A stretch of DNA of 64,000 nucleotides, from positions 259 to 64,258 of the IMG/VR virus record IMGVR_UViG_3300012007_000677; one strand, 5' to 3'. How positions within the stretch are numbered: the stretch's first letter is position 1; each line of letters begins with the position of its first letter. This document shows, piece by piece, positions 5,058 to 62,911 of the stretch. The notes beneath the pieces were generated by a model. It saw only the letters and a list, made by a program, of their open reading frames with translations, was not told the origin of the DNA and searched no databases. The translations under genes and the position numbers were made by a program. This DNA comes from a virus. Lineage: Duplodnaviria; Caudoviricetes.

Positions 5058-5612
5058 TCAAAAACGAAGTTTTTTCCCAGTGTTCAGTGTTAATTCTCCA
5101 TAAGCAATGGCATTCAGCCGTCGCAGCCAGCCATTCAGGAATCGGTTCTGCGACGGGTCGTTCTCACAGATTTTCCTCAGATACTTTTCACGCGCCTCCA
5201 AAAGCATATAGAAAAGCTCCTTGGGGTTGTATGAATTGATCATGCGAAGTGTTTGCGGGCCGACAATGCCATCAGGCTTCGCGTAAACGAGCCTCTGAGG
5301 AATCACGATGCCGTTCTTTCCGCTGCACCACACCCAGTCCACCAACATATTAGCGACAGACTGGTCGTTAATTTCGTCCGCACGCCAACGGTTGTAGTAG
5401 TTGTTTTTGAGAATCCTCAGCGCGTCGGCCTCTGTGATGAGCTTTAGGTCATCGACGTCGATATCGCCATCGCCGTCTTTGTCGTAGCCCTGCTTTCGCC
5501 ATGTAGCGATGGTCACCCCTTTATTTGTGGCCCCTCCTCGATCTTTGGGGTCGTTTACAAACCCGCCCTCATACGACAGGATGAATTTACCAATCGGTTC
5601 TACTTTTGCCAT
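5058..5612 (-). CDS. Endolysin, glycoside hydrolase family 108 with peptidoglycan-binding domain
   Basis: [20 protein letters not shown] motif, [19 protein letters not shown]. Confidence 0.92.
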
Positions 5613-20600: not shown

Positions 20601-23143
20601 ATGGCGTCGTAAATGGCTTTCTGGCGAAGATAATATTCAAACAGATGTTCGTCAGCCTTGCTGCCCTCATGGCGTGCTTTTGCTGCGCGAAAACGCAACA
20701 CCTGTTCGTGCATGGCTTTCGCGTCGCCGGAGGCGTACAGCTTACGTCCCTCTGAGCGAAGCTGCTCCAATTCGCCGTCTGAAATAAGCTCCCTGGTTGC
20801 ATTCTCGTCTTTTTGGTTATCCAACATTCCGGGCTTGGTATACTGCTCCAGCAACTGCATGAAGTCGCTCATCACCTGATCCCCAAGCTTCGTACGGGAA
20901 TCAGACTCTACCGCACCACGAACAGCTTCCACGGGGACACCATGTTTCTCTGCTATGTCGTAAAGGGCATCTTCGTAGGGCGTCTCCGTTAGGTCCATGA
21001 ACGTTTGTCTTACGTCAAGAAACTCCTCCCTTACTTTTCTCTCGTCCCCGGTCAAGTTCTTTTCGTCCTTAGCAAGAATCTCCGTCATCTGTTCGGGGTA
21101 AACACCACGACGGAACATTTCCGCAAACGCCATCGGTGTTGCCTTGGCCAGCTTGACCGTCTCGCTCTGCTGCTGACAGAACTTGCGCCAGTTCTGCGTG
21201 ACGGTTTCGCCCATCTCTTCACGATATTGCTGAGCTTCCTGTTCTGTGGCAAAGATGGTTCTCTTCTGGAATGTTCCATTTCCATCAAACTCATCCACGC
21301 GGTATTGTGTCACAGGGTTGCCTTTGCTGTCCAAAACGATGTACGGCTGCACGTCGCCAAGCTTGGTTGTTTCCATGACGGGAACATTCGGATTCAGCCC
21401 TGCAGCTTTCAGGAGCATGTTTTTCTGCTCCACCGACAACGCTTTATTTTCAATGATACCCATGGCACGACGATACCATAGCTGCTGTTTGGGGTCAAGA
21501 TCGGTGTACAGCTCGGCGTTTTGGAACAGCCATTTGCGGGCGTCACCATCGCGCACCACTGGGATGCCAGCGTTACGGAATGCCATCTTGTCCGCTTCCG
21601 TGAAATGAACGTTGCCAAGAGCTTCTTTTTGGGCTCTTGCTGCACGAATTTTATCTGGAGCTGCAGCCAGCTCAATCATCATAGTGGTGAGCGCAGAGTT
21701 TGCCAGCACATCACCCCAATCGACATCGTTGATATCAAAGTTGGGGTCTGTGGCCCATCGTTTCATTACGTCGGACACCGCAAATACCGCCGTTGTTGCA
21801 GCAAATTTCTCACCCGCACGCAAAGCCTCTTGCGGCTTACCAAAGTGTCCTTTGTTCAACATGGCAGCACCCTCATGGCGCTTGGCGAGACCCGTTTTAA
21901 CAGAGCCAAGCGCAAAGCCCGTCAGCGCCCCAGAAGCATAGTTCATGCCGAAGTTCTTTGCTGCCTGCCAAACACTGACTTCGTCCTGTGCGATATCATT
22001 TAGCAGCCCGCTTGTGCCCTCATACAGGCCAAACGTGCCACCTTCATGCAGACCTGCACGCACAGCCGTACTTAGGAAACCGTTGCCGCTCAGAGTGCTG
22101 GCACGGGCCAACCTTCCAAGACCGGCTGTATTAGAAACCGCGCCAAACAGTCGGAACGGGCCTGCATCCGCAATAAACGGAACGGCCATCCTGCCAAACG
22201 CCATTGCACCTGCAGCAACCTTTTCGGCTGCGCCGCCGTTTTCAAGCTCTTCCTTCAACCTTTCGTCATACCTTACTTGAGCTTCCTGCTCCACGCCACG
22301 AATTTCGTTTGGCACACCAGCTGTGCTTTGTAAGATCCTACCTATGATACTCTGACGCAATGGAGAAAGTGCGGCATCTATGGCATTCTTCGGCATCTTG
22401 CGCCTTACCAGCTCTTCCCTTACCTTATTTTCGACAACAGGAAGCAAGAGCTTTTTTACATACTCCTCTTCTGTTAAATTCAAGGCTGCAGCATTGTTGC
22501 GTATGTTGCTCAATGCCAAGGGGGTATCCAGATTATCAGCAATATTGTCAACAATTTGAGAAGGAACATACTTCATGTTTGCCTCATATGGCGTTAGGTA
22601 TAAATCTTTCTCTCCATGTCGCGATGCAACAATTTTCTCGCCCTCGCTCATATCCTCGTTGCGCACCAATGTCTGATTGATGTAGTCATCCATCTGCATT
22701 ATACCTGCACGCGCCACGTCACTGGCCAGCCTGTCTGTATTGCTGTCCACAGCAGGATACTTGCTTTCTACCGGCTCTGCCTCACGTTTCGGTGGAACCG
22801 TTGCGGCAACCGCATCGGATGGGGCTATGGGTTGCTCCTCCGGATTGAAGTGTCTGCCACCACGCTCCCAAAGTGGGCGCTGGGCATTCTCCAACGCCTC
22901 TCTTCGCACCTCGGGCTCAACTATCTGGGCTCGTCTTTGGATGTTTTCAGAAGCGGTCTCGCCCCAATCTTTGATAGGATTAGGCATGTCATCCCAAGAG
23001 CGGATAGGCGTTTCCCCTTGACCAATGCCATCGCGCACGTTCTCTCGGACATTCTCCTCCACGCGCTCGGAAAAGGCATTATCAAAATCCGCTGCCCCCC
23101 AGTTAAGTCCCCACTTTTTATCTTTATCTTTCTTCGTCGCCAT
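5600..23143 (-). CDS. Giant polyvalent protein, 5,847 aa (metallopeptidase, PBECR-like and LPD-type nuclease-like, ART-like, PRTase, pyrophosphatase-like, nucleotidyltransferase, zeta-toxin-like kinase modules); likely ejected virion protein
   Basis: Motifs GHETGH; [11 protein letters not shown]...HWHF; IDEVQSQ; FKKWFGDW...VVYHGT...EYVVF; [14 protein letters not shown]; ITIENPAGS...[10 protein letters not shown]; [15 protein letters not shown]; [11 protein letters not shown]. Confidence 0.9.
14405..14435 (-). promoter_or_regulatory. Candidate internal promoter inside the giant ORF (TTTG-N19-TATCTTTG)
   Basis: + strand caaagata at 14405-14412 and caaa at 14432-14435, just after an FSKE linker and upstream of the PRTase module. 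Confidence 0.5.
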
Positions 23144-25359: not shown

Positions 25360-28300
25360 TTATCTCATTCTGCCGTCTCCACGCACCTCAAACTTCACGC
25401 GGATGCCGGTAATATTCTCTGTCTCATGCAGCTTCGTCTTCATGATGACGCGCCAGTATTTGAACCACCGGCCCACGATGTGCGGCACACGGTTTCGCTT
25501 CGTCGTGCCCAGCGTCACCCAGTTGTTCTGCTGGTCTTGCCCGTCGGCGTAATCGCCCTGTATGGAGTTGCTGCCCTGAATCGTCAGCTCCTGTTCCTCG
25601 CGGCAGTTGCCCACCAGCGATATCTCGGATATCTTTTTCAGATCCAGCGAGTCCATCTTGATGGGGCGCGACACCAGATATCCCTCATAGGCGCCGTCTT
25701 TCTCGTCGATATAGTCCATACGGCCGTCCAGACGCATGATGCTGTAGTCCTCAAACTGAATGTACGAGAACGGATGCTGATTCAAGACGGCACGCAACGG
25801 GTAGTCCGTTGTCATCATGGAGAATGTCTCGGTGGTCATATTGAACACGACAAAGGTGCGCGCGCCCTCCACGCCGTAGAAGATTCTCTGCCCCACTTCG
25901 TCGTACACCGTCTTCACATTTGGGTTGGAGAGAATGCGCATATAGCTCGTCTCTTCCCAGACAGAGTTGTATGTTGTGAGGCTGATGGCACAGCGGTAGT
26001 CTTCCGGAATTTCCGTCATCTTCACGACGGTTTTCTGCCGCTCCTCGTCCGTCATATATTTGTTGCCATAAGCCACCTGCAGCGGATGGATGGTCACCAC
26101 GACATTCTTGAAGCTGGCCTGTGCGACAAGGTCTTTCATCTCCACATAGCCACCATCGTACAAAGCAACGAGATTGCCACCCACCATCACGGCGACGGGA
26201 ACAGGCGTGCCGTCTGTCAGCACGCTGTTGACGGTCAGATCGAAATGCTTGTTCTTCTCAATAGCCAAACCTGTTTCCTTCATGTTCCATCGCGGATTGG
26301 GCAGGAACGGAACGTCTGTCTTTATCTTGGGCTCATTCTCAGACGTCACCACCACCGAAAGCTCCAGGCTGGTGTCCTTGACGTTGTCGATGTTGCCGTT
26401 AGCATCCACGGGAATCTGCAGGATAATATCCTCGGCATTGGCGCCGATATCGCAGCCGGGATCCTCCATATAGACACCATTACCGTCTTTAATGCCGTTG
26501 ACAAACGTCGTAACGTCGCCTTGGTATTTAACCTCTTGGTCGGCCGTAACGATGATTTGCTGTGTTCCGGCCAGCAGCTCCGTGAGGTTTGGCAGATTCA
26601 GGCGCGCCGGACTGTTGTTACCAAGTCCCCTCTGCGAGATGTCCACACATCTCATATTGGTGACAAAGGCTTCTTCTGCTGTTAGCGTAATCTTTCTGGG
26701 GTTATTTCCGTACCAACGACCTTCCTCGTCCAAAAGTCCTTTCTCGACTTCCTCACCTTCGTCTACATGAGTTCCGAAACCCCAAGTGTTAGTATATCCG
26801 GATTCGCTGTCATATCGCAAGTCACAAGGAACCATCAGGGGCCCACGCTTAAGCAGCACATTATCTGTATCAATAAACACTATCGTCGCAAACCTTACCG
26901 TGCCCGGCTCTACAACATAAACAGGGTCTTTGCCGGGGCGAACAATCTTCCTAAAATCCCAATTATCAAATCCGGCATCATCTGTCTTGACCACAAAAGA
27001 ATCGTCTTCGGCGTTTGCTATTGTGTGAACGGTCAGGTCACCGCCACTAATAAGCTCCTGAATCTCCTCGTCGGTCATATAGGTCTCGGCCGCAGGGTCT
27101 ATCTGGTTGCCATAGCTTCCTTCAATAACAACATACCGCGTGCTTCCGTGAAGATGTCTTTTTAGGATGTCGTAGCCGTGCCGCACAGCACCAACGGCTT
27201 CATCATCGTCCAGAATGATGTCATTTTCGTCAAACTTGGCCTCGCCGTCAAACTTCATCGTGTATGTGAGGCCAACGGGGCCTGTTGCCGTCTTGCCTCT
27301 CACCTCGATACGCCTGAAACCGCTTTGAGGCTGTTCACTCGGATCAAAGAAAAGCGTCTGTGTACCTTTGGCTTCGTCCCGACTTTGCACAAGCCCGAAG
27401 CGGCTCTCCTGCCGATATGTACCGATAACAGCTTTTATCGTAAACACCACATCCAATTTATTGTAATTGGTGAATACGATGCCTGTGCCGTCGATGACAT
27501 ACCAGAACTTCACCACCGGGTCTGTCTCCGTGGCCGTGAATCTGATGGGCGCAAAGTCTTTCGCCTTGGTGTTTAATCGGCTGATAGGCCCGTTGTAAAG
27601 CGGTTCGCTCTGCAAAGAAGAGTATATTCTGATGGTTGTGCCAGTCTCTGTGCTCTTGATGAAGTCACAGATGTTACACGACAACTCGTACTGATATCCC
27701 TTCATCAGGCTGCAGGTCGCCTTATCCCAGGGCTTCTCCCAGATGCTCTTCTCTGTCTTCGTTATTGTTTCAACAGAAACGATGCTGCCCATGCTACTCG
27801 TCTCGCTCTTGCGAAGCGTCACGCGACAAGTCTGCAGCGCAATGTCATGATAGACATCCTGCTGCCCGTGTTGATGTTTACCCTGCACAAGCACATTAAC
27901 CTCAAACGTGCGCTCTTTCTCGCCATCGTCCTCGCCATCGCCCTCGCGCCAATGAAGGCGTAGTGGAGCGTCGCCAACCGTTGCGTATGATGCCCATTGT
28001 GGTGCAGCATTAGAGTTTTCTTCGAACGAGCACCCCAAAAGAAACTCTGCGTTTTCTCCTGTAAGATTATCGATTACGAACTCATCATCCATCCAGCCTT
28101 GGTGGTGTTCCGTCTGGCCAACACGCAACCTGACCTCCGGACTCATTTTGCCCACAAGTCTCGTTGGCACGCCACTGGTTTCTGAGTGTTCTGCGTTATA
28201 TTCTGCATCAACGTAATCTGGCGCCTCAAAAAACAAAGGGGAGCCAGTCTTCTCTACGCCAACCACGGACACAAAGGGACGCTGATCGCCGTTAGAGTTA

Positions 28301-31248
28301 TCTATCCACGCGCCGGTTTCGTGCTCGTCCGGATTGATGTTAAGAAACTCGTTCAGGTTGCTGGTAATCTTAATGCGGGCACAAGAGGGAACGAATCCCG
28401 GAATGCACTTAAAGATGTCTGCTGCCGTGGCGTTTTCAAGAGTTATTTCGTGCTCCTGGGCGAACGCCGTAAGTTCGTCACCCGTCAGCGTCCGATGTAC
28501 GATGCTTGCATTCGTGTTGCTTACAGGAATTTGCTGCACCACGATATTGTCTTTTTCCTTGCCTCTGACCACAATGTTACTCGGGGCCTTGCCCTCCAGC
28601 GGACGGGAAAGTATCTTGTGCTGGTTGCCGCGAAGCAGGCACAGGCCATCTTTCGACATATAATATATGCCTGATGTGGTGGACACCAAAGAGTTTCTGT
28701 TTACAAGCACAGGACCCTCCATGGGTTCCACCCTGAGAATTTTGCCATTTTCGTCCAACGACAACGCATAGTTGCCATCCGTGCAAAACGCCACTATGGG
28801 TCGGTCGCCGAATTGCCCTATGCTGATGGCGTCGCGCTGAACGGACAGAGCTAAGATCTCTCCGTCACCTACCACGATTTCTTTTTGATTATCGGGGAAT
28901 CCTGAGTCATAGGGATTATAAGTGTCGCTGTAGTCAATCTTGTTCAGGTCCTGTTGCATGGGGGACGATGTTTCGAACACCATGTTTTTGCCGGGTCGGG
29001 TGTATCCCAAGTCCTCTTCTTTGTCCACCTTCATGTTGTACCAGCTCCAGTAGGAGAAGTTGGCGTTGAGCTTGGCGCTCTTCATCGGGATGGTGAATTT
29101 TCGCCAATGCCCTGTTGTGTCTTCCTGAAACAGTACAGCCCGGTAGCAGCCGTGTTTGGGATAGGAGAAAAACATAAAGGGCATCTTGGTGCCGCACAGT
29201 CCGTATATCTGGGGATTTTTCCCGTATGTATTTTCCCCAATCTTGTCGCAATAGCTCTTGCCTTGGGAGTCTTTATAATAGACATAGCCGTACAGACTGC
29301 CTCGCATCTCAGAGGTGCGCCAGCTGTCAATACCCATCCTGTTAGAGTCAACATAGAAAATGTCGTCGTTGTCTTCGTCAGGGATTATGAACAATGGATA
29401 ATCGCCATCGTTGTCCGATATCGGATTGTCGCCCGTGTGCCCCCACGCACTCCGTTGCGGCATCTTGACATTGCATTCCACTAAAGCGCCGGTTGTCTGT
29501 GTCAACTCGTCGCCGGTATATGGCGCACCGCCTCCTTGTGTAGTGTGACCATACTTAAACAGACGGCTGTTATAGCGGAACAAGTGCCCACCCATCGTGA
29601 CACTATTGGTGTCGAAATCCAGGCTCGGCATTGGGACTCCTTGGTTTTGAGCAATGCCTTGGTAGCTGTTTGCGTTCTTGATGTGGCCCTCAACCACAGA
29701 GAGTTTGTCGTTTTCGCCGATGTTGAACGTCTTAAACAGCTTGAAGTTCCCGTCAATCAAGGCCGCTTCGAGAACATCATCCAGATTATCCTTGGCCGAC
29801 GGCGTAACCAAAAAGTCTCGTGTCATATCGAACGGCCACTTCTCGTAATTATATGGAGCACTCTCGCTGTCTCTGTGCTTCGCGTCAAGCATCAGCTCGT
29901 TCAGCTTAAGAAGCCATTCGAGCTTTTGGTCTATCACCATCTTGTGAGAGAAGTGCTTGCCGGCAGCAGCATCAAAGACCAGACTGTCACCGTTCGTCTC
30001 AAAGAGAGATGTCAGAGAGCCGGAAACCACATCGTTTCTCACACCCCTTTCAATCCAGGGCGCGCGAATAATATTGTCTGTTGAACCGTTTCTCCAGCCA
30101 TGAAGCGCTTCTGTTTGATAGTCAAACGAGTACGGCACATTAGTTAAAGTGTACCCTTTAAGGAAGTCAAACAGATACAGCGGTGGCGTCACATAGACCT
30201 CAATGCTGCCCACGCGCCCACCAATAACCATGTCGCGGTTGCCGACAACCGTTATTTTCAGGTTGCTGCGACTTAGATCCTCGTTGCTGTTGTTCGGGTC
30301 ACCACACGCGCCAACGACGCCATAATGAAACTTGTGTTCATAATGTTTTGGCGTCTCCCATTCGTCATTGTCGTGATGAAAATCAACCACCAACAACGGA
30401 CAGCATGTTGTCGGCGTCACCAGAACTGGAGGAGAAACCTTGATGGGGATGCCCCCAACATTCTTCACAACATAGCGAACAAAGAATGGCAAGACAAACT
30501 GGTTGTGTTTGGCGCACTTGTTGATAACAAGTTCGTTCATCAAGGACGTAAAGTTACCAGCATTGTTTTTGACAGCGGAACCATCCTCAGCCGTGCTCGG
30601 ATTACCCATCTTCGGTGAACATTGGATGATTGTCTCGCTATTGTCCATCCAATCCACATCATTGTCTGCGTATTCGCCGCCGGAGTTTATATCCATGTGA
30701 CCCAAATTCACAAACTGCGTAGAGTCCGAGAATATACCAAAGTTTAGACAGATATCCTTGACGCTGTCGTCCGCAACGTAGTCAATAGCCTTATCACCAT
30801 CCTTCACCAGCCCGCTGGTGTATTGATATTGGCTGTTCCTCCAAAGCAAATAACTATCGTCAGCCTTGTCGCTTTTAAGCACGATGATGTTGCCTATCGC
30901 ACAAGCCTCTGTCGATTCTGTCCACACACAGCCGTCAATGCGAGTTGGCCCAACCTTTCCTTTGACGTCATAATAATACACATCGCCATCGTTTTCTCCC
31001 TTGGAGAGTATCAGGTGTTTGATGCTGCCGGTGGCATGGATATATCTTAGCGTGTAGCCCTCCTTAGAAAAGTCATACTCCAGCCTTTCCCCTTCATCGG
31101 TGTTGCCGATAAATGCTGCAGGCTTCACGCTGCCGGCATGCACCTCCATATTGTTCAGCAGCTCCAGCTCGCCGTCCGGACTGATATCCGAATAGGGAGC
31201 TGCCGTCATTCCTTTCTCAAAAGTGATAAGCTTCTCGCGCTTGGCCAT
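25360..31248 (-). CDS. Large tail/stabilization protein (P22 gp10-like ends, large central insertion)
   Basis: 1,962 aa, first gene of the tail operon; beta-rich ends (GQFGDRPIVAFCTDGNYAL; GRWFKYWRVIM). Confidence 0.65.
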   Translation of the reverse strand: MAKREKLITFEKGMTAAPYSDISPDGELELLNNMEVHAGSVKPAAFIGNTDEGERLEYDFSKEGYTLRYIHATGSIKHLILSKGENDGDVYYYDVKGKVGPTRIDGCVWTESTEACAIGNIIVLKSDKADDSYLLWRNSQYQYTSGLVKDGDKAIDYVADDSVKDICLNFGIFSDSTQFVNLGHMDINSGGEYADNDVDWMDNSETIIQCSPKMGNPSTAEDGSAVKNNAGNFTSLMNELVINKCAKHNQFVLPFFVRYVVKNVGGIPIKVSPPVLVTPTTCCPLLVVDFHHDNDEWETPKHYEHKFHYGVVGACGDPNNSNEDLSRSNLKITVVGNRDMVIGGRVGSIEVYVTPPLYLFDFLKGYTLTNVPYSFDYQTEALHGWRNGSTDNIIRAPWIERGVRNDVVSGSLTSLFETNGDSLVFDAAAGKHFSHKMVIDQKLEWLLKLNELMLDAKHRDSESAPYNYEKWPFDMTRDFLVTPSAKDNLDDVLEAALIDGNFKLFKTFNIGENDKLSVVEGHIKNANSYQGIAQNQGVPMPSLDFDTNSVTMGGHLFRYNSRLFKYGHTTQGGGAPYTGDELTQTTGALVECNVKMPQRSAWGHTGDNPISDNDGDYPLFIIPDEDNDDIFYVDSNRMGIDSWRTSEMRGSLYGYVYYKDSQGKSYCDKIGENTYGKNPQIYGLCGTKMPFMFFSYPKHGCYRAVLFQEDTTGHWRKFTIPMKSAKLNANFSYWSWYNMKVDKEEDLGYTRPGKNMVFETSSPMQQDLNKIDYSDTYNPYDSGFPDNQKEIVVGDGEILALSVQRDAISIGQFGDRPIVAFCTDGNYALSLDENGKILRVEPMEGPVLVNRNSLVSTTSGIYYMSKDGLCLLRGNQHKILSRPLEGKAPSNIVVRGKEKDNIVVQQIPVSNTNASIVHRTLTGDELTAFAQEHEITLENATAADIFKCIPGFVPSCARIKITSNLNEFLNINPDEHETGAWIDNSNGDQRPFVSVVGVEKTGSPLFFEAPDYVDAEYNAEHSETSGVPTRLVGKMSPEVRLRVGQTEHHQGWMDDEFVIDNLTGENAEFLLGCSFEENSNAAPQWASYATVGDAPLRLHWREGDGEDDGEKERTFEVNVLVQGKHQHGQQDVYHDIALQTCRVTLRKSETSSMGSIVSVETITKTEKSIWEKPWDKATCSLMKGYQYELSCNICDFIKSTETGTTIRIYSSLQSEPLYNGPISRLNTKAKDFAPIRFTATETDPVVKFWYVIDGTGIVFTNYNKLDVVFTIKAVIGTYRQESRFGLVQSRDEAKGTQTLFFDPSEQPQSGFRRIEVRGKTATGPVGLTYTMKFDGEAKFDENDIILDDDEAVGAVRHGYDILKRHLHGSTRYVVIEGSYGNQIDPAAETYMTDEEIQELISGGDLTVHTIANAEDDSFVVKTDDAGFDNWDFRKIVRPGKDPVYVVEPGTVRFATIVFIDTDNVLLKRGPLMVPCDLRYDSESGYTNTWGFGTHVDEGEEVEKGLLDEEGRWYGNNPRKITLTAEEAFVTNMRCVDISQRGLGNNSPARLNLPNLTELLAGTQQIIVTADQEVKYQGDVTTFVNGIKDGNGVYMEDPGCDIGANAEDIILQIPVDANGNIDNVKDTSLELSVVVTSENEPKIKTDVPFLPNPRWNMKETGLAIEKNKHFDLTVNSVLTDGTPVPVAVMVGGNLVALYDGGYVEMKDLVAQASFKNVVVTIHPLQVAYGNKYMTDEERQKTVVKMTEIPEDYRCAISLTTYNSVWEETSYMRILSNPNVKTVYDEVGQRIFYGVEGARTFVVFNMTTETFSMMTTDYPLRAVLNQHPFSYIQFEDYSIMRLDGRMDYIDEKDGAYEGYLVSRPIKMDSLDLKKISEISLVGNCREEQELTIQGSNSIQGDYADGQDQQNNWVTLGTTKRNRVPHIVGRWFKYWRVIMKTKLHETENITGIRVKFEVRGDGRMR

Positions 31249-34739: not shown

Positions 34740-35029
34740 AGTTTTATTTTGTTTCTTTTTGACGTTTTCAATAATGCCGAAAGATTAAGTTTGATTTTAA
34801 CAAAACCAATAGGCCTGCCCAGATTATTATTAAAAAGGCTGCATGGTATAACCCCATCTCCACGCATCAGAAGACAATAGTGACCATTCCCTTTATTGTG
34901 GAAAGCACAGTGTGCACAATCAAGTTCTTCTGTCACCCTAACTGATAATCCATTGTGCGTAAAAACGCCACCAATCCTCGCCTTAAGACAAAGGGTGTTT
35001 ATCCACCAGTTTGCTTCTATTCTATTCAT
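34712..35029 (-). CDS. Hypothetical Cys-containing protein
   Basis: 105 aa; CAHCAF...YC...PC possible Zn site. Confidence 0.45.
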   Translation of the reverse strand: MNRIEANWWINTLCLKARIGGVFTHNGLSVRVTEELDCAHCAFHNKGNGHYCLLMRGDGVIPCSLFNNNLGRPIGFVKIKLNLSALLKTSKRNKIKLWTERKKRT

Positions 35030-36017
35030 TTGCGCTTAACAGAGCGTTTCCGCATGTGATTCTATCCTCGTCTTCCTCCTTAGAAGGAATAAATACGATA
35101 ACCTCCCACCCCTCATCAAGAAGTGGCTGTTCGAACTGACGGTACACATCATACTTGTAGTATCCCTCTGGCGTGTTGATCCCGTTGGCGTTGGCCTCAT
35201 TGGTTTCGTGTATGGGCGTAATCTTCACGATGAACTTTTCCTTGTCGAACAGTCTGCTCAACTCCTTGGGGTCAAGAATGGTTTTATCGGTGACAGGGAA
35301 ATTGAGTGTGTATTTGCGACCATTTGGCATTGGCAGTATACGACATATACGGCTGATTGTTTCGAGGCTCATAGAACGACCGCGGAACAATTCTTCGCGC
35401 TGTATGGCATCTGTCGAATTGATTGAGAGTTGCAAGCCTGCCTCGCCGTTGTAGTCCTCGTTCTTGATGCGGCAAAACTCTTCCAATATATGTCCCACGC
35501 CTTTCATGCCGAGTGACTTGGGCATCATTGTCGTAAAGACGGGGTGGATGGTGTTGGCTTTCATCTTGGAGTTTACAAGCGGGCGCAGGTCTTCTTTGAG
35601 AAATGCGAGAACATTAGCGGCATTAAGTGAGGGTTCGCCCATTCGTGCAAGGTGGAGGTTGAAACGCTCAGTGTACTTGCACCCGCTGAAATCGATAGCG
35701 TTGATCACCTCTTCTGCCAGCTCCTCGCGGCTGATGTTGCCGCCAAACTTAACCTTCGGGCAGTCACAGAACATGCAGTTCATCGGACAGCCCTTCTGCG
35801 TGGAGATTGTAACGACCATCTTATCCTTTAGGTCAACGTCGTGGTGTGGTACTGAGTTGATTTCCTTCTTGAACCCAAGGAAGTCTGCCTTGATATTGTT
35901 TTCCTTGCCGTAGTCTCCAACATAAAGGTACTCCATTCTCTTTTCTGTGTCACAGAAGATTGCGCCAGTACGCGTCTTAAATTCTTTAATCATTGTCTTA
36001 TTTTGTTTTTGCTTCAT
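35022..36017 (-). CDS. RlmN/Cfr-like radical SAM enzyme (divergent)
   Basis: TISTQKGCPMNCMFC, ARMGEPSLN, C-terminal RITCGNAL. Confidence 0.85.
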   Translation of the reverse strand: MKQKQNKTMIKEFKTRTGAIFCDTEKRMEYLYVGDYGKENNIKADFLGFKKEINSVPHHDVDLKDKMVVTISTQKGCPMNCMFCDCPKVKFGGNISREELAEEVINAIDFSGCKYTERFNLHLARMGEPSLNAANVLAFLKEDLRPLVNSKMKANTIHPVFTTMMPKSLGMKGVGHILEEFCRIKNEDYNGEAGLQLSINSTDAIQREELFRGRSMSLETISRICRILPMPNGRKYTLNFPVTDKTILDPKELSRLFDKEKFIVKITPIHETNEANANGINTPEGYYKYDVYRQFEQPLLDEGWEVIVFIPSKEEDEDRITCGNALLSANE

Positions 36018-55590: not shown

Positions 55591-57087
55591 TTAAGCGCCC
55601 ACCTCTTTAGCTTCCATGGGCGGCATCGAGATGCGGCAATGCGCATCGGGATAAGCCAACGTCCAGCAGCTGAACTCCTCCATCACAACGGCGTTGGAGT
55701 TGCGGATGAAAAGCTTCTTCAGATCGTACTCGTTACGCTCCCAGGTCTGGAAGGTCCATTTGTCCAGGTACTCGGGATCCAGCGAGAAGCCCTTGCCCAC
55801 GAAGCCCCACTCATTGAAGAGGTCGTGACGGTAGAAGAGCAGCGTTGTGCCCATGCAGGTGTAGCTGTCGAAGTCGAGGCCCAACTTCATGTAGTTGTCC
55901 TTCTGCTCCAGCAGACGAATGCGGTTGTTGGTGCGAATCTTGCAAAGGGCAGCGTAGATATCGCGGTCCACGAACACCATCTTCTTACGGCTCGTGTTGC
56001 CGGCAGAGTCGGTGATGTTGGACACCAGGTCAACCAGTTCGTCCTCGGTAATCACGTAATCCTGCACATAGTAGGTTTTGCCGCCGGCCGTGTATGTCAC
56101 GGAGTTGCCGTTGCTGTCCTTGCGAATCTCCCAGTGTCCGAGCGTGGCGTCCTTACCGGCGTGCCAGTAGATGCCGTCAGAGAGATACACGAGGCCCTTG
56201 CCGTCAGGCAGCTTGTGCACGCCCTTGTTGCCGAAGAGTCCCGTGGCCTCCATGCCAATACGCATATCCTCCATCGACATTTTCTCCAGACGGGTGAACG
56301 TCCAGTCCACTTCCTTCTGGCTCATGCGGGAATAGGTGGTCTCTTCAACCATCATGATGAAGCGCTGACAGTACTGTTCGGAGGGTTCGGGAATCTGATA
56401 GAAAGAACCGGTATTCACGTCAACTTCGGCTGCTGCTCTACCCATTCTCAGGAGCTGGGCACCGGCAGGAAGGGCCTGCAGTCTGAACGGTCGTCCGTTG
56501 TTGTCATTCAGTCCGTTGGTTGCGTACACCTTGGGATTTCCATCGTCATCGATGGCATTCACGCGCAGCTGCAGAGGGCGATCGGCGTATTTCTCATCCT
56601 GACTCTGGGTCATGATAAAGTTGCCGTTCTCGTCCATCACGAGCAGCGTGTCCATCACGCCGATAATGGCCTGCTTTTCCACCACAATTTTGACGGCGCC
56701 GCCGTTGGAATTGCTGGCTTCGGTTGCCTGAGCGATACCTACACGCAGGGGGCGCTGGCCGACACTGTAATACTTCACGACAATGCTCTTCGAGGCATTG
56801 GTGGATGCCTGGCGAAGAATCTGGTCAATCGGCGTACCGCAGAACTTCATCTCGACAATCTTCTGGTTCACCTGCTTCACAAACCAGTCGTTGTCATACT
56901 TCTGCTCTTCCTGGCTCGTCTTGGACGCAGGGCCCTCAACGGTCTTACCGGCCGTAAGGTCGGCTGCAGCCGTTCCGTCAACACCATCTGCTGCCATAGC
57001 ATAGCCGCCCGACGTCAGAGCCAGGAGCACCATCACGACAACAGAGAAGATACAGTGGATAACACTGAAAACACTTTTCTTTTTCAT
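55591..57087 (-). CDS. Major capsid protein with N-terminal signal/TM-like segment
   Basis: 498 aa after the scaffold gene; QRFIMMVEETT...DMRIGMEATGLFG; DPEYLDKW; VVMEEFSCWTL. Confidence 0.75.
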   Translation of the reverse strand: MKKKSVFSVIHCIFSVVVMVLLALTSGGYAMAADGVDGTAAADLTAGKTVEGPASKTSQEEQKYDNDWFVKQVNQKIVEMKFCGTPIDQILRQASTNASKSIVVKYYSVGQRPLRVGIAQATEASNSNGGAVKIVVEKQAIIGVMDTLLVMDENGNFIMTQSQDEKYADRPLQLRVNAIDDDGNPKVYATNGLNDNNGRPFRLQALPAGAQLLRMGRAAAEVDVNTGSFYQIPEPSEQYCQRFIMMVEETTYSRMSQKEVDWTFTRLEKMSMEDMRIGMEATGLFGNKGVHKLPDGKGLVYLSDGIYWHAGKDATLGHWEIRKDSNGNSVTYTAGGKTYYVQDYVITEDELVDLVSNITDSAGNTSRKKMVFVDRDIYAALCKIRTNNRIRLLEQKDNYMKLGLDFDSYTCMGTTLLFYRHDLFNEWGFVGKGFSLDPEYLDKWTFQTWERNEYDLKKLFIRNSNAVVMEEFSCWTLAYPDAHCRISMPPMEAKEVGA

Positions 57088-57132
57088 TTTTCTTTTTGTG
57101 TGTTTTGGTTAATAATATAATGATTAAAACTC

Positions 57133-57975
57133 TTAGCTGAATCTCGGCTTCATGCGGTCGTAGCTACGCATGGTGGGATTTTCCTCCGGCTCTTCGGTCT
57201 CGGGCGCGCCGCTACCGCCGCCGCCAAGGTCTGTAGGCGTCTCGCTGAATCCGCGATGTGCAGCTCCGGGGCGCTGTCCGCGACCGGCTCTGCGGCCCTC
57301 TTCGCGCGCACGCTCCAGATCGCTGTCGCGTGTCACGGCGTAGAGCAGAGATGTGATATCCTCCTTGGTGAGCGTGCGGCTCAGGATGCGACGGAACAGG
57401 CCATCTTCCTCACCGTAAACCCAATCCACAAGCTTCTGCATCGTGGCGTTGTCGGCACCCACTTCGTCGGCCACCTCTTTGGCAATCTCGTTCATTTTGG
57501 CAAGATTGTTGGCCACCTCTTCTTTGCGCTTGGCCTCGGCTGCAGCTTCCTCTGCTTCCTGTTGCTGCTTCTCAGCCAGCCACTCCAGCGCCTCTTCGGT
57601 GTTGGCGAAGTCCTTAAGCTCTGCGCCGTAGTTCACGATGATTTCCTTCAGCAGATTGAAGTCCTCGCCGTCGTCGTTCTTGCCGGTGAGGATGCCGCTG
57701 ACAAGGCGTGCGTTGCGAGGGTCGCTCCTAATAGCTTGGTTTATGCGCTCGTTGTCCTCCTTGCGCTTGTCGGCCTCAGAGAATTGTTCGCCCAGATAGG
57801 CGTCCAGAGCGTCTTCGTCATCCAGATTCAACTCGGGATTTCTCTCACTCAGTCTCTTCTGCCACTTCTTTTGTGCAGGAGCTGCTGCGCCTGTGCCTGC
57901 ATCAGGGGGCGTCTGTGCTCCGGGAACGCCGGTTGCAGAATTTGCTACCTGCTGGTTCTCTTTTTCCTTTTCCAT
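57133..57975 (-). CDS. Scaffold-like protein
   Basis: 280 aa, acidic coiled coil, directly upstream of the capsid gene. Confidence 0.65.
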   Translation of the reverse strand: MEKEKENQQVANSATGVPGAQTPPDAGTGAAAPAQKKWQKRLSERNPELNLDDEDALDAYLGEQFSEADKRKEDNERINQAIRSDPRNARLVSGILTGKNDDGEDFNLLKEIIVNYGAELKDFANTEEALEWLAEKQQQEAEEAAAEAKRKEEVANNLAKMNEIAKEVADEVGADNATMQKLVDWVYGEEDGLFRRILSRTLTKEDITSLLYAVTRDSDLERAREEGRRAGRGQRPGAAHRGFSETPTDLGGGGSGAPETEEPEENPTMRSYDRMKPRFS

Positions 57976-58009
57976 TTGTCTTCGAGTTTTTTTTAGAATA
58001 ACCGTGCTG

Positions 58010-58070
58010 CAAATTTACCCTCCTTATTTTTGCGTCCTATTGCAAAGTGTCCACATTGTGAATAATTTTG
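58010..58070. promoter_or_regulatory. Divergent head/packaging promoters with variant palindrome CAAAGTGTCCACATTG (58043-58058)
   Basis: Minus TAAATTTG at 58010-58017, 25 nt from the palindrome; plus ATTG-N20-TAATTTTG with the palindrome inside its spacer. Confidence 0.75.
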
Positions 58071-58077
58071 CAGCGAA

Positions 58078-58500
58078 ATGAGCAGAAGCGAAGAATTAAG
58101 TATCTATCCAGCTATGGAATTGAGACGCAAATTCATACTCAAAGAGTTTGCACGTCTCAAAAAGACCTGTCTCTATACCTCAGTCATTCAGATATGCCGC
58201 GTCATCGCATCGCTTCCCTGCCAGTTTTTCATCTCCCATCGTACTGCAGAAATTCTCTATAATATATATATTGTGGGCAAGCGGCACGCCGGTCTCTCTC
58301 CGTACAACAGGTCCCGCCAATCGCGTATATTTGTCGAACGGATGAAGCAGCTTCACGACGAATGCCCGTCGCTCACAAAAAAAGAGATTATCGAACGAAT
58401 ACTCAACTCCGACGCGCCCAACCTCGGCGTAGGGGCAAACTTCCTCAGAAAATACATCCTGCATTATGAAAAATGTAAAAAAGCTCAAAGGCCTGCTTAA
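58078..58500 (+). CDS. Putative DNA-binding late regulator (candidate)
   Basis: Basic 140 aa with two similar halves (LPCQFFIS...ILY / APNLGVG...ILH); sits next to the operator. Confidence 0.4.
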   Translation: MSRSEELSIYPAMELRRKFILKEFARLKKTCLYTSVIQICRVIASLPCQFFISHRTAEILYNIYIVGKRHAGLSPYNRSRQSRIFVERMKQLHDECPSLTKKEIIERILNSDAPNLGVGANFLRKYILHYEKCKKAQRPA

Positions 58501-58843
58501 CATTGTGCCCGTCACCATCGCCGCCATCTCTATCAATATCGCCAAAATGCGCGCCGACTCCCTGTTCGCCAAGACAGGCAAGCGCTTTTATGTTGTCTGG
58601 GATGGGTCCAGACGCAAGCTGGTCTGCATATCCTACGACGCCATTCCCGGCCGTGCCGACTCTTACAGATACCTGCGCCTGCGCGGATGCTTCCCACCGC
58701 AGACACGCCAGCAGATTAAGGACGGCTCACTTTACTATTCGCGCTCTAAGTCGCACCCGGCAATGCCCAAGGATATTTTCCAAGCGCGCCTTTGGACATT
58801 AGTCGCACTGCGCAAAAGAAAAAAAGACAAAAATCAGAAATGA
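58466..58843 (+). CDS. Basic hypothetical protein
   Basis: 125 aa, coupled to both neighbours. Confidence 0.6.
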   Translation: MKNVKKLKGLLNIVPVTIAAISINIAKMRADSLFAKTGKRFYVVWDGSRRKLVCISYDAIPGRADSYRYLRLRGCFPPQTRQQIKDGSLYYSRSKSHPAMPKDIFQARLWTLVALRKRKKDKNQK

Positions 58844-59310
58844 TTGTTCCGCTACGATACCAGTGGGGGCTGTTCCTGCTCATGGGGGCCCTCTTACCCT
58901 TTTCAACCTCTCTCTCCCTCAGCGGGTGGGACTCCCCACTGGCATCGTTTCTTTTTTGGCCGTTCGCCCATGCCAACATACTTCACTATCTCGTCAACCT
59001 CTGGGCATGGATATGGTGGTGGCCATTGGTGACGTGGGACAGGCTTTGGTCCGCCTACATTGTTTCCATTCTTGCTGGGCTGGCACACATAACTTTCACG
59101 CCACACCCCCTGCCTCTCTTGGGGTTTTCGGGCATCATATTCTTTTTCGTCGGATTCTCTGTGCCGTTGCGTCCGCTTAAGTCTGTCCTAATCTCTTTTG
59201 TCTTCCTTGCACTCCCTCTTTTGTTTTTTGATACCATCGCCGGTGCGGTCCACATGTTGACTTTCTGCTTCGGGTGGGCCTACTGCAAGAGCATTCAGAT
59301 GTATGGATAA
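58840..59310 (+). CDS. Rhomboid-family intramembrane serine protease
   Basis: FAHANILHYLVN (HxxxxHxxxN), LLGFSG (GxSG catalytic Ser), AGAVHM (catalytic His); multi-TM; ATGA overlap at the start. Confidence 0.85.
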   Translation: MIVPLRYQWGLFLLMGALLPFSTSLSLSGWDSPLASFLFWPFAHANILHYLVNLWAWIWWWPLVTWDRLWSAYIVSILAGLAHITFTPHPLPLLGFSGIIFFFVGFSVPLRPLKSVLISFVFLALPLLFFDTIAGAVHMLTFCFGWAYCKSIQMYG

Positions 59311-61450
59311 GGAAGACAGCATAGACCTTGTCATCGACGAAATGCTCAGCGACAACGAGCGTCGCAAAAAGGAGCTGTTTCCCGAGTTCAATCAGTTTAC
59401 GGGCGAAGGGTGCCCGGGCGAGCGCACATGGATTGAAGTGGAAGATCTCTGTGGTGGCGTTCGTTGGTATGTGCCGACAGTGCTCATCAACGAAGACCCG
59501 CTGTGGTCTGCCCTTGCATTCTACCATTCTGTAAGTGCCTACTGCTACGCCTGTTTCGGACGCACAGGAGAAGACCTGCGCGAAAACCTGATAACACAAC
59601 TGCTTCGCTCACGCGCTAAGCACGACGTGTATTTCTTCTTCCTGGTATATTGGCGCATTCGCCCGAAAGACTTTGGTGACAACATCCCCTTTAAGCTTCG
59701 CGCCGTCCAGATGCGTTTCATCGCGCTCTGCGAAGAGATGCGCCTTTCCGGGAAGCCCCTGCGCTACATCATCCTCAAAGCACGTCAGGCCGGCATCTCC
59801 ACTCTGATCGACGCCTACATCGGCTGGTATCAGATTATGTGGGAGAAGTCTAAGGACTCACTCATTGTCGGTCATCAGTCCGACGCCTCTGTGGAGGTGG
59901 AGGATATGTATAAGACAGCCATCAACCTCTTGCCCGACTACCTCTTCTATGAGCCCGGCGAAGAAGTGTCTCTCAAAGGCGACAAAATCACCGGCTCCAA
60001 GACACAGAACATTTCCCACATCCCTGCGCGCAACTGCAAGATTAAGACCGGCTCTGCCGTCAATCCCGAGGGCGCCCGAGGCGGTGCGTCTTCACTTATC
60101 CACTACACCGAGGTTGCGTTCTGGCCCGAAACGGGCAAGATTAAGCCCAGGAATCTTATTAAGTCTGCCACCTCTGCAACTGGCGGTCGCCCGGGTACGA
60201 TGGTCTTCTTTGAATCAACACCCAACGGCCAGAACTTCTACAAGGACGAATGGGACCGTGCTGGCCAATACGACGACTACGGCGAGAAGGTTTCTGCCTA
60301 CTACCAATTCTTCATCGCCTGGTGGCACATCGACCTCTACCGCACGACGCCGCCAGATATGCGCCTGTTCTGCCGCCAGCTCATTGAGCGCCGCGACGAC
60401 AAGAATGGCGGGTGGCAATATCTCTACTGGCTCTGGACGATTGGCGCTACACTGGAGGGCATCTATTGGTACTACCAGACGCGCAAGGAATATCAGTCTG
60501 CAGACGATATGCAGCAGGAGTTCCCGTCCGACCCGATTGAGGCCTTCAAGTATGCAGGCACACTGGAGTACGACCTGTATCTGTGCGAGAAGCGCAAGAA
60601 GTCCTGTCGCCCGTGCAAGTGGCGCGGCGATATCGAGGGCGACGCACCCAAGGGCGAGCTCTCTGTTCGCAATTTGCGCTTCTTTGAGAGTGAAGCGGGA
60701 TGCCTGCAGGTCTGGGCGAAGCCGGACAAAAAGCTGCGACTCTTCAACCGCTATCTCATCTCTGTGGATATCGGCGGCAAGTATGCCACGTCCGACTGGT
60801 CTGTCATCACGGTGTTCGACCGTGCTGCCATGATGCTCGACAAAGAAGGACACCTCAACGAGAACGCCGGTCCCACCGTCGTTGCCGAATGGCGCGGTCA
60901 TGTTGATCCTGACCTCCTGGCCATCAAGTGTGCTCAGCTTGCCATCTGGTACAACAACGCCATCCTTGTCATCGAAAACAATACGGCCTATTCACGCTAC
61001 AACGGCACGGCCAATGATGATGTCACGGAGTTATTCTTCCCCATCCTCCTGCCGCTGTACACCACGAACCTGTACCGTCACAATCAGTCCGAAACCAAGG
61101 TTCAGCCTGGAGCAGAAACACGTTGGGGTTTCAACACAAACAGAAACACCAAGACCGCTGTTGTGAAGTACCTTGGCCAATGTCTGCGCGACAACACCTA
61201 CGTTGAGCGCGAGAAAGGAGCCATCGACGAGATGGAGACCTTCATGAAATATCCGAATGGAACCTTTGGCGCCGTTGAGGGCAAGCACGACGACCGCGTG
61301 ATGTCGCGCGCCATCGGCCTTTACGTGTCAAGATTTGAATGGGACAAATATCCGGTTAGACCTATGCCCACGCGCAAGCAGCGCGAAGAATCACGCCGCC
61401 GCGTCAATGCCCGCCGCAACCTCGCTGCCAATGTTATCCTAAATCATTGA
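59303..61450 (+). CDS. terL: Terminase large subunit
   Basis: ILKARQAGIST (Walker A), HYTEVAFW, FFESTPNG, ISVDIGG nuclease, HDDRVMS. Confidence 0.95.
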   Translation: MDKEDSIDLVIDEMLSDNERRKKELFPEFNQFTGEGCPGERTWIEVEDLCGGVRWYVPTVLINEDPLWSALAFYHSVSAYCYACFGRTGEDLRENLITQLLRSRAKHDVYFFFLVYWRIRPKDFGDNIPFKLRAVQMRFIALCEEMRLSGKPLRYIILKARQAGISTLIDAYIGWYQIMWEKSKDSLIVGHQSDASVEVEDMYKTAINLLPDYLFYEPGEEVSLKGDKITGSKTQNISHIPARNCKIKTGSAVNPEGARGGASSLIHYTEVAFWPETGKIKPRNLIKSATSATGGRPGTMVFFESTPNGQNFYKDEWDRAGQYDDYGEKVSAYYQFFIAWWHIDLYRTTPPDMRLFCRQLIERRDDKNGGWQYLYWLWTIGATLEGIYWYYQTRKEYQSADDMQQEFPSDPIEAFKYAGTLEYDLYLCEKRKKSCRPCKWRGDIEGDAPKGELSVRNLRFFESEAGCLQVWAKPDKKLRLFNRYLISVDIGGKYATSDWSVITVFDRAAMMLDKEGHLNENAGPTVVAEWRGHVDPDLLAIKCAQLAIWYNNAILVIENNTAYSRYNGTANDDVTELFFPILLPLYTTNLYRHNQSETKVQPGAETRWGFNTNRNTKTAVVKYLGQCLRDNTYVEREKGAIDEMETFMKYPNGTFGAVEGKHDDRVMSRAIGLYVSRFEWDKYPVRPMPTRKQREESRRRVNARRNLAANVILNH

Positions 61451-61454
61451 AAGA

Positions 61455-62444
61455 ATGCTGAAAATCGGACTTATAGACGCAGACCTTATGTGGCAAAAGA
61501 GGGCCAACGGGCGACGATACGGCAAGCAGAAGGCCGACGTGTTCCCCAACCTCGCCATCATGAAGCTCTCGGCATGGCACAAGCAGCAGGGTGACAGCGT
61601 TGAGTGGTACAACGGCGTGGAGCACTACGACCGAGTGTATATCTCCAAGGTGTTCAGCACCACGCCAGAACTGCCCGACATCATCAATGCCGACGAGGTG
61701 GTGCGCGGTGGCTCAGGCTACGCCATCCACCTGGTGGACGGGCGCGAGGTGTGGGGCGGCGAAGACAAGCCTATGCCCTACAACGTGGAGCACATCATGC
61801 CCGACTACGAACTCTACCCGATGGTGAAGGACACGGCCTTCGGCTTCCTCTCTCGCGGCTGTCCGCGTGGCTGCTCTTTCTGCCACGTTGCCGCGAAGGA
61901 GGGGCGCCGCTCCTACAAGGTGGCCGACCTCTCGGAGTGGTGGAGCGGACAGCGCAACATCTGCCTCTGCGACCCGAACATCCTCGCCTGCCGCGAGTGG
62001 CGAGATCTGTTGCAACAGTTGGCAGACTCCAAGGCGCGAGTTGACATCAATCAGGGCATGGACGCACGGCTGCTGACGGAGGAAAAGGTGGAGATGCTGA
62101 ATCAGATAAACCTCTCGACCATTCACTTCGCATGGGATAACTACCGACAAAAGGAAGCTGTGCTCAAAGGACTACAATGCTTTGCCGACCACTTCCACCG
62201 CTCACTCGACAAAGGACATTGGGCACAGGTGTTCGTGCTGACCAACTTCGACACCACGCCGGAGCAAGACCTTGAACGCATCTACACCCTGCGCGATATG
62301 GGCTTTGAGCCTTACGTCATGGTGTACGACAAGCAACACGCGGCACCCTTCTATAAGTCGCTCCAGCGTTGGGTGAATATGCGGGCTATATTCCATCGCG
62401 TGAAAACCTTTGAAGAATATGACAGAAAAGCGGCAAAAGAATAA
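61455..62444 (+). CDS. Radical SAM protein with N-terminal B12-binding-like domain
   Basis: IGLIDAD...FPNLAIMKLS...GGSG; SRGCPRGCSFC; DINQGMDARL. Confidence 0.85.
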   Translation: MLKIGLIDADLMWQKRANGRRYGKQKADVFPNLAIMKLSAWHKQQGDSVEWYNGVEHYDRVYISKVFSTTPELPDIINADEVVRGGSGYAIHLVDGREVWGGEDKPMPYNVEHIMPDYELYPMVKDTAFGFLSRGCPRGCSFCHVAAKEGRRSYKVADLSEWWSGQRNICLCDPNILACREWRDLLQQLADSKARVDINQGMDARLLTEEKVEMLNQINLSTIHFAWDNYRQKEAVLKGLQCFADHFHRSLDKGHWAQVFVLTNFDTTPEQDLERIYTLRDMGFEPYVMVYDKQHAAPFYKSLQRWVNMRAIFHRVKTFEEYDRKAAKE

Positions 62445-62518: not shown

Positions 62519-62911
62519 ATGGCAGACATTAAAGATGTTACAACAGCCCTTGCTGACCTCACCGTGAAATTTTCGCAGGTTAACACGACAATTAAAGATG
62601 CTTTTGGCATCAGTGTCGAAGAATTGCTTTCGGGCAACAAATACGGCATGACATTTGGTGGTGCTATCGCTGCGCTGAAGCTGGGCATTAAAGTCGCGCG
62701 TGTCGGTTGGAACGGCAAAGGCATGTGGCTCTATCTCGTTACAGAGGGCAAATATCCCATGAAAATGAATGCCGCCAGAGCAATCGCCGACGAGAAAGGG
62801 GATGTTTGCTACGGGGCGTATATCGCGCTGAAAGCCGCCGACGGAAACGTTTACCCCTGGAATGCGTCGCAAGCCGACATGCTCAGCAACGACTGGATGA
62901 TTGTCGAATGA
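62519..62911 (+). CDS. tad2: DUF2829 / Tad2-like anti-defence (signal-sponge) protein
   Basis: MTFGGAIAALKLGIKVARVGWNGKGMWL ... PWNASQADMLSNDW. Confidence 0.8.
   Translation: MADIKDVTTALADLTVKFSQVNTTIKDAFGISVEELLSGNKYGMTFGGAIAALKLGIKVARVGWNGKGMWLYLVTEGKYPMKMNAARAIADEKGDVCYGAYIALKAADGNVYPWNASQADMLSNDWMIVE

Follow-up and report, generated by a model that had tools for sequence, protein, structure and literature searches.

A signal-like leader on the capsid protein and a phage mini-rhomboid: a candidate membrane-coupled step in head maturation of a gut Bacteroidales phage

The window considered here, a stretch of 64,000 nucleotides that makes up nearly the entire virus record IMGVR_UViG_3300012007_000677 (64,258 bases), belongs to a tailed phage of gut Bacteroidales. 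Its major capsid protein (MCP) starts with a basic and hydrophobic leader resembling an export signal, and close by, on the opposite strand, a gene for a very small rhomboid protease overlaps the gene for the terminase large subunit (TerL). A functional link between the leader and the rhomboid is well supported by comparison of related phages at the level of sequence. What this link consists of is a more speculative matter. We suggest, at a little short of an even chance, that the rhomboid removes the leader of the capsid protein; the insertion of the leader into the membrane, its cleavage, the site and the enzyme, and a cytoplasmic location of the capsid domain would all be parts of this proposal. 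The features on which it depends are the following.

55591 to 57087, minus strand: MCP precursor of 498 amino acids, SU10_MCP family (HK97-type), recognised from Pfam, PHROGs, 387 homologues and capsid matches in Foldseek.
56998 to 57087, minus strand: MCP leader, residues 1-30, from the sequence, a predicted helix at residues 3-25 and the layout in homologues.
56893 to 56997, minus strand: acidic linker, rich in Gly, Ala and Thr, that spans about 35 residues and joins the leader to the conserved N-arm, apparently disordered (low model confidence, variable in homologues).
58840 to 59310, plus strand: mini-rhomboid intramembrane serine protease of 156 amino acids with six transmembrane helices and a minimal L1 loop, from Pfam PF01694, a family profile and the predicted fold.
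59303 to 61450, plus strand: TerL, phrog_2 at 1.2e-19.

The capsid protein matches Pfam SU10_MCP (PF17236) over residues 71-486 with 53.9 bits (cut-off 24.1; 2.5e-14) and phrog_26635 across residues 9-488 at 2.7e-80, and its profile meets the MCP of VP1 with an E-value of 0.001. The predicted model is poor. Its mean predicted local distance difference test score (pLDDT) is 53, from an alignment of 15 rows, which is too low for conclusions on the fold or on what becomes of the leader; the best Foldseek matches of this model are phage capsids, VP1 (1e-7) and crAss001, with low TM-scores.

The N-terminus of the protein reads M-K-K-K, about 22 hydrophobic residues, T-S-G-G and then Y-A-M-A-A-D-G. 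Of the 120 closest homologues (41-90% identity), every one that is full-length shows the same layout, and the leader usually ends in G-G-(Y/F)-A-(M/L/C)-A with Ala, Asp or Glu next. For distant homologues, cluster representatives at 50% identity were searched exhaustively, and an N-terminal hydrophobic segment is found in 114 of the 147 representatives listed, down to about 25% identity. Behind the leader stands a linker that is low in complexity and variable in all homologues, and the conserved N-arm follows it; residues 26-113 of the window's protein have a pLDDT of only 23-31, which predicts disorder. In the homologue searches the leader recurs far beyond chance. Judged from these alignments, it is translated and conserved as part of the MCP.

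An in-frame ATG does occur at codon 31, and it might be asked whether translation begins at this internal Met (M-A-A-D-G), so that the leader is an artefact of annotation. We rejected this reading because most relatives have no Met at the equivalent position, while the basic and hydrophobic segment is kept at the protein level in hundreds of homologues, again down to about 25% identity. The first ATG, 45 nt past the stop of the scaffold-like gene upstream, is preceded by an A-rich spacer of the kind typical of neighbouring genes; the internal ATG lies in G+C-rich sequence. An internal start is hardly credible in the face of these observations.

The second partner is recognised by Pfam PF01694 with 23.8 bits (cut-off 22.6), and a profile built from 23 phage rhomboid homologues matches GlpG at 4e-7. 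In these 23 diverse homologues H44, H49, G95, S97, G105 and H138 are invariant and Y40, N53 and G145 nearly so. They make up the H-x4-H-x3-N of helix 2, the G-x-S of helix 4 and the His of helix 6, where G145 stands for the packing motif of small residues behind the His, and they align to the matching positions of GlpG. The catalytic Ser motif of the window's protein, G-F-S-G, falls on the G-L-S-G of GlpG; its last Gly varies in the family. The AlphaFold model is confident (pLDDT 91.2, predicted TM-score 0.86), and all its Foldseek matches with an E-value below 0.03 are to GlpG, with query-normalised TM-scores of 0.64-0.74 (0.72 at the top of the list). From the alignment and the model, the rhomboid is intact, with the catalytic Ser and His and the H-x3-N kept on a predicted GlpG-like fold. 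It is a minimal rhomboid: members of the family have 140-180 amino acids and no extra domain, the L1 loop takes about 10-15 residues and the W-R motif is not conserved in the alignments. A search of NCBIfam with the protein gave no subfamily match, rhombosortase included.

The likely start of the rhomboid is the ATG at 58840 rather than the TTG at 58792, which gives 156 amino acids. We favour the ATG because of its A-rich context and because it overlaps, as ATGA, the stop of the open reading frame (ORF) at 58466-58843. At the other end the ATG of TerL at 59303 lies inside the rhomboid ORF, whose stop is at 59308-59310, an overlap of 8 nt. Across the alignment, Lys and Arg cluster at the N-terminus, in the loops between helices 2 and 3 and between helices 4 and 5, and at the C-terminus. 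Under the positive-inside rule such a distribution suggests that both termini face the cytoplasm and the active site faces the periplasm.

No gene for a prohead protease of the HK97 (S78), T4 (S77) or ClpP/S49 types was found in the head module. More broadly, Pfam and PHROGs scans of all window ORFs of at least 120 amino acids revealed no peptidase family besides the rhomboid among the matches listed, where the PHROGs matches for a batch of 41 ORFs were the best 25 of 43 families. These scans took in two giant ORFs, of 5847 and 1962 amino acids, as well as the scaffold-like protein encoded directly upstream of the MCP, in which no hidden protease signal appeared.

A sequence-only reading of this DNA had already picked out a major capsid protein that opens with MKKK, some 22 hydrophobic residues and TSGGYAMA-A behind an ATG in an A-rich start context, together with an intact-looking rhomboid translationally coupled to TerL and no visible protease of the HK97, ClpP or T4 type. 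All of this agrees with what is described above: the leader is read in the 498-residue ORF, the spacer has the expected composition, Pfam and PHROGs identify the capsid protein, the catalytic residues of the rhomboid are invariant, TerL begins 8 nt before the rhomboid ORF ends, and among the matches listed for ORFs of at least 120 amino acids no such protease turns up.

How closely do the leader and the rhomboid go together? Comparison loci were gathered by similarity of their MCPs, so that the comparison covers relatives of this capsid type; the counts take no account of shared ancestry. Among the 80 closest IMG/VR loci (42-60% MCP identity), 79 have a rhomboid gene on the opposite strand, 1.3-2.8 kb from the start of the MCP, and the homologue matches have E-values from 1e-7 to 1e-16. 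The 80th locus, L058, has its portal gene relocated before the scaffold gene, and its rhomboid is elsewhere in a record that is 98% complete. A second set was seeded with more distant MCPs. Here a rhomboid was found in 30 loci, each with a leader-bearing MCP. The cultured Bacteroides phages BF1-TP2 and BS-TP4, with 35% MCP identity, have the same layout and a rhomboid annotated in their records. L272, which came from a seed search that also gave long-leader records, combines a short leader with a rhomboid. Altogether, about 110 of the records examined have an MCP with the short leader of one helix, and the mini-rhomboid was found in each of them.

Two other MCP clades behave differently. Their leader is longer: a basic tip and a hydrophobic helix are followed by a second hydrophobic stretch of 12-20 residues, rich in Ala, Gly and Val, and only then by a polar linker. 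A rhomboid was found in none of the 15 records with such a leader when the whole records were searched, and the same search recovered the gene in all four positive controls (G011, G012, G015 and G025). Five of the 15 records are at least 90% complete, four of these being 100% complete. In one long-leader record, L090, the small upstream ORF adjoins TerL directly, with no gene between them. Since at least 15 related records keep a longer leader without it, the rhomboid is, on this comparison, not a general requirement of leader-bearing capsids.

MCPs without any leader are common in genomes of Muribaculaceae and other Bacteroidales. Two islands with such an MCP, L131 and L124, were read and contain neither TerL nor a rhomboid. 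In five genomes with leaderless MCPs that were searched, there were at most weak matches (20-23 bits), all to ordinary cellular rhomboids of 250-350 amino acids. Within the examined sample, then, the mini-rhomboid is confined to phages whose MCP has a short, single-helix leader. The link between leader and rhomboid, as it had first been read from the window alone, stands up to the co-occurrence comparison that this reading asked for: every rhomboid carrier examined has a leader-bearing MCP. It is limited in the other direction by the at least 15 longer-leader records lacking a rhomboid. Relatives that had lost the transmembrane segment and kept the rhomboid would have spoken against the proposal, and the leaderless relatives examined are without the mini-rhomboid.

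These counts bear on a simple alternative, that the substrate of the rhomboid is some other membrane protein of the phage or host, with a role in the timing of lysis, in superinfection exclusion or in takeover of the host. The leader would then be independent of it, and would be retained in the particle or otherwise removed. The tie between rhomboid and leader is indirect, rhomboids have diverse substrates, and leader-bearing MCPs exist without a rhomboid. But the gene stands in the head and packaging operon, overlapping TerL, and not in a lysis cassette, and in the sample it goes only with short-leader MCPs (the roughly 110 records) and never with leaderless or long-leader ones. We regard a different substrate as improbable.

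The leaderless islands deserve a note of their own. They consist of a small acidic ORF, the MCP, an ORF of about 180-190 amino acids and a P22-like portal (L131 9587-13123, L124 943-4329). In L131 the island lies between host genes, in L124 a host gene is found upstream, and terminase and tail genes occur in neither. At least 564 stretches matching these leaderless relatives exist in genomes of Bacteroidales species, mostly Muribaculaceae (the loci include L127-L206). Such islands could be capsid-forming satellites or domesticated particles.

If the rhomboid does act on the capsid protein, the following scheme can be imagined. The MCP would be synthesised as a precursor whose leader of about 30 residues resembles a Sec signal or a signal anchor. 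The leader would bring the new MCP to the cytoplasmic membrane and retain it there. The mini-rhomboid, whose gene shares an operon with TerL and the portal, would cleave at or near S-G-G / Y-A-M-A, at the outer end of the helix, and this cut would release the capsid protein or the procapsid. The rhomboid would thus take the place of the prohead protease in a phage in which none was found. It is a further speculation that the capsid domain, folded or bound to scaffold, cannot cross the membrane, so that only the leader and linker engage it, and that the linker can slide back once the cut has been made on the outer side. The long-leader relatives, for their part, might use a hairpin of two segments that returns the chain to the cytoplasm. 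Taken as a whole (an HK97-type MCP truly inserted into the membrane by its leader, a phage rhomboid that makes the releasing or maturing cut, and sister lineages that manage with a two-segment leader and no protease) and applied to a large family of tailed phages of gut Bacteroidales, the full scheme is doubtful, though it should be taken seriously.

Several observations lead us to favour removal of the leader by the rhomboid. The gene belongs to the head and packaging module, the comparative pattern points to the capsid leader, and no other protease was found; the small, helix-breaking residues sit at the outer end of the helix; and the cut site and the active site of the rhomboid are predicted to be on the same, periplasmic face of the membrane, as judged from the distribution of charges in both alignments. 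Y-A-M-A also resembles the P4-P1 residues of rhomboid substrates and inhibitors such as IATA and FATA, with a large hydrophobic residue at P4 and a small one at P1. GlpG entries with the FATA inhibitor are among the matches of the rhomboid in the profile and fold searches. When the complex of the rhomboid and MCP residues 1-70 was predicted, with alignments for both, the score was 0.01, which is informative neither way.

A number of points weigh against this proposal. One is topology. A leader with its N-terminus inside would place the cut site and the capsid domain alike outside the cytoplasm, which is a problem because DNA-packaging capsids have to remain cytoplasmic. This difficulty was foreseen in the sequence-only reading, and the charge distribution in the alignments sharpens it. 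An N-in helix followed by an acidic stretch would indeed give the look of a secreted protein. Moreover, the transmembrane helix precedes the proposed cut, whereas canonical rhomboid substrates are N-out and have the opposite order, and P2' holds an acidic residue instead of a hydrophobic one. The 15 related records with a longer leader and no rhomboid mean that leader-bearing capsids can form without one, and the co-occurrence counts are uncorrected for shared ancestry. Cleavage of the MCP and its association with membranes are candidate events. Finally, A-M-A|A would suit host signal peptidase I as well.

This last point leads to another explanation, in which host signal peptidase I cuts at A-M-A|A and the rhomboid has a secondary, related job. 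It might clear the tens of thousands of freed leader peptides, in the manner of a signal peptide peptidase, or deal with jammed precursors. By Sec-signal rules the leader fits, with its KKK n-region, its h-region of 22 residues and small residues at -3 and -1 in A-M-A|A. The long-leader relatives manage without a rhomboid, as this explanation would allow, and it still accounts for the occurrence of the rhomboid only with leader-bearing MCPs; in addition, signal peptides of the type predicted by SignalP have been reported on the MCPs of Porphyromonas gingivalis phages (PMC10367356). However, in distant relatives position -3 is frequently Met, Val or Cys and -2 is nearly always large and hydrophobic, so that the A-x-A rule does not hold throughout. 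At 20-22 residues, the h-region in the family is of transmembrane length and longer than in typical cleaved signals, and the Gln at +1 that is common in Bacteroidota substrates of signal peptidase I is absent. The paradox of topology would also be the same, for a cleaved secretory protein ends in the periplasm. We consider this explanation rather unlikely, but of the alternatives to cleavage by the rhomboid it is the one that most needs to be kept in mind.

Why would removal of the leader by the rhomboid matter? Assembly of tailed-phage heads is regarded as a soluble, cytoplasmic process that employs soluble maturation proteases. Here is an MCP that by every sequence rule should go into or across a membrane, in a phage with a membrane-embedded protease apparently in place of the usual prohead protease. 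If the link holds, it would amount to a new way of assembling heads, in a phage group that is among the most abundant of the animal gut, and rhomboid proteases, whose bacterial substrates are mostly unknown, would gain a clear natural substrate. Membrane-coupled head assembly would, if true, have no counterpart among the studied tailed phages. It also raises the question of how a membrane-targeted capsid protein remains cytoplasmic. Three cultured phages, BF1-TP2, BS-TP4 and BKO1-TP3, make the system directly testable.

Some labels in the GenBank records of these cultured relatives may mislead. TerL is called a tail spike protein in BF1-TP2 (gp60, L081 5143-7170) and in BS-TP4 (gp7, L209 2859-4955), and MCPs are labelled DUF5309 or DUF2951. 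The label YajC on gp5 of BS-TP4 was considered as a link to Sec and judged spurious, as a label on a protein without a membrane segment.

The genes around the pair are arranged in two divergent operons. The minus-strand operon holds the scaffold-like gene and the MCP, and the plus-strand operon two small ORFs, the rhomboid, TerL and a gene of the radical S-adenosylmethionine (radical-SAM) type. The remaining features of this region are these.

57133 to 57975, minus strand: scaffold-like acidic coiled-coil protein of 280 amino acids, directly upstream of the MCP, phrog_22323 at 3.8e-11.
57976 to 58077, no strand: divergent intergenic region between the scaffold-MCP and rhomboid-TerL operons, from the ORF map.
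58078 to 58500, plus strand: first gene of the packaging operon, 140 amino acids, phrog_27246 at 1.9e-09.
58466 to 58843, plus strand: poorly conserved ORF of 125 amino acids whose stop overlaps the rhomboid ATG (ATGA), from the ORF map.
2579 to 4534, plus strand: P22-like portal, Pfam P22_portal at 7e-34 and phrog_156 at 2.2e-44.

The portal gene is the continuation of the packaging operon around the ends of the record. The position of the scaffold-like gene is unchanged in BF1-TP2, BS-TP4, L090 and L058. Neither of the small ORFs upstream of the rhomboid is similar to its counterparts in BF1-TP2; the 125-residue one has no family match in Pfam, PHROGs or NCBIfam and no similarity to BF1-TP2 gp58. 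A scan of the divergent region for consensus promoters gave matches not above chance. Of two radical-SAM-type genes in the window, 61455-62444 on the plus strand (phrog_9298 at 3.7e-94) starts 4 nt after the stop of TerL, and the other is at 35022-36017 on the minus strand. Further downstream of TerL in the packaging operon, a protein of 130 amino acids (62519-62911, plus strand) carries a Tad2-like, anti-Thoeris domain with an E-value of 4.8e-23.

The largest ORF of the window, on the minus strand at 5600-23143, encodes the polyvalent protein of 5847 amino acids, with LPD13, LPD3, ART-PolyVal (ADP-ribosyltransferase), InPase, Zeta-toxin-like kinase and nucleotidyltransferase domains; its probable role is counter-defence, as an injected protein with several enzyme activities. 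The ORF of 1962 amino acids (25360-31248, minus strand) has no Pfam match. Similar proteins of about 1600-1900 amino acids are encoded near the head genes of relatives (L090 3-4766, L058 143-5947), and a paper on the cultured relatives describes unannotated proteins of about 2000 amino acids as targets of diversity-generating retroelements. Other Pfam matches among the window's ORFs are DUF5131 (1.4e-94), a GH108 endolysin with PG_binding_3, and DUF4406/nucleoside deoxyribosyltransferase. A weak match to the muzzle domain of the protelomerase TelK (6.5e-4) was found along with a PHROG integrase match; the former hints at the possibility of a linear-plasmid prophage lifestyle.

We know several systems with which the proposed pair can be compared. 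Like E. coli GlpG and Providencia AarA (S54, PF01694), the phage rhomboid has a six-helix core with the G-x-S Ser in helix 4, the His in helix 6 and H-x3-N in helix 2, and both its termini are predicted to lie inside, with an active site that faces the periplasm. As with AarA and TatA, the enzyme would be dedicated to one partner, which it shortens slightly at the N-terminus, and Y-A-M-A resembles the P4-P1 residues IATA of TatA. Unlike GlpG and AarA, the phage enzyme, at only 156 amino acids, lacks a cytoplasmic domain as well as the W-R motif, and its L1 loop is minimal; in its family the last position of GxSG varies, and its gene belongs to a phage and adjoins TerL. Its proposed substrate is also of reverse polarity, with the helix N-terminal to the cut, and has an acidic P2'. 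Rhombosortase and GlyGly-CTERM offer another parallel: an enzyme of the rhomboid family and a tripartite tag (Gly-Gly, hydrophobic helix, basic cluster), a pairing that was likewise recognised by co-occurrence. The tag of the MCP, however, is N-terminal and mirrored (basic, helix, Gly-Gly), and the substrate would be a capsid protein.

On the side of phage assembly, HK97 gp4 with the delta domain and T4 gp21 with gp23 offer a parallel: here too, maturation would involve trimming of the MCP at its N-terminus by a phage protease encoded in the head module. Those proteases are soluble, act inside the procapsid and remove soluble propeptides, whereas here the candidate is a membrane protease and the piece a membrane-type helix. 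In M13 the major coat protein, gp8 procoat, has a signal-like leader cut by host leader peptidase and is inserted in the cytoplasmic membrane before assembly. Inovirus coats, though, are small membrane proteins that are extruded, in contrast to a 498-residue protein of an HK97-type shell, with packaging by terminase and no second anchor.

Among phages of Bacteroidota, some MCPs of Porphyromonas gingivalis phages ('Nixviridae') carry predicted signal peptides (PMC10367356), a likeness to the leader described here; in that paper a prohead protease is taken to remove them, and a rhomboid is not mentioned. These MCPs were not matched when a phage collection was searched with the window's MCP. The paper reporting BS-TP4 and BKO1-TP3 does not mention rhomboids, and full-text literature searches gave none in which phage rhomboids are connected with capsid proteins. 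As proposed, the system would combine things of known kinds, an MCP propeptide with a phage maturation protease on the one hand and a dedicated pair of rhomboid and substrate on the other. Should the membrane step be demonstrated, it might prove to be of a categorically new kind in the assembly of tailed phages.

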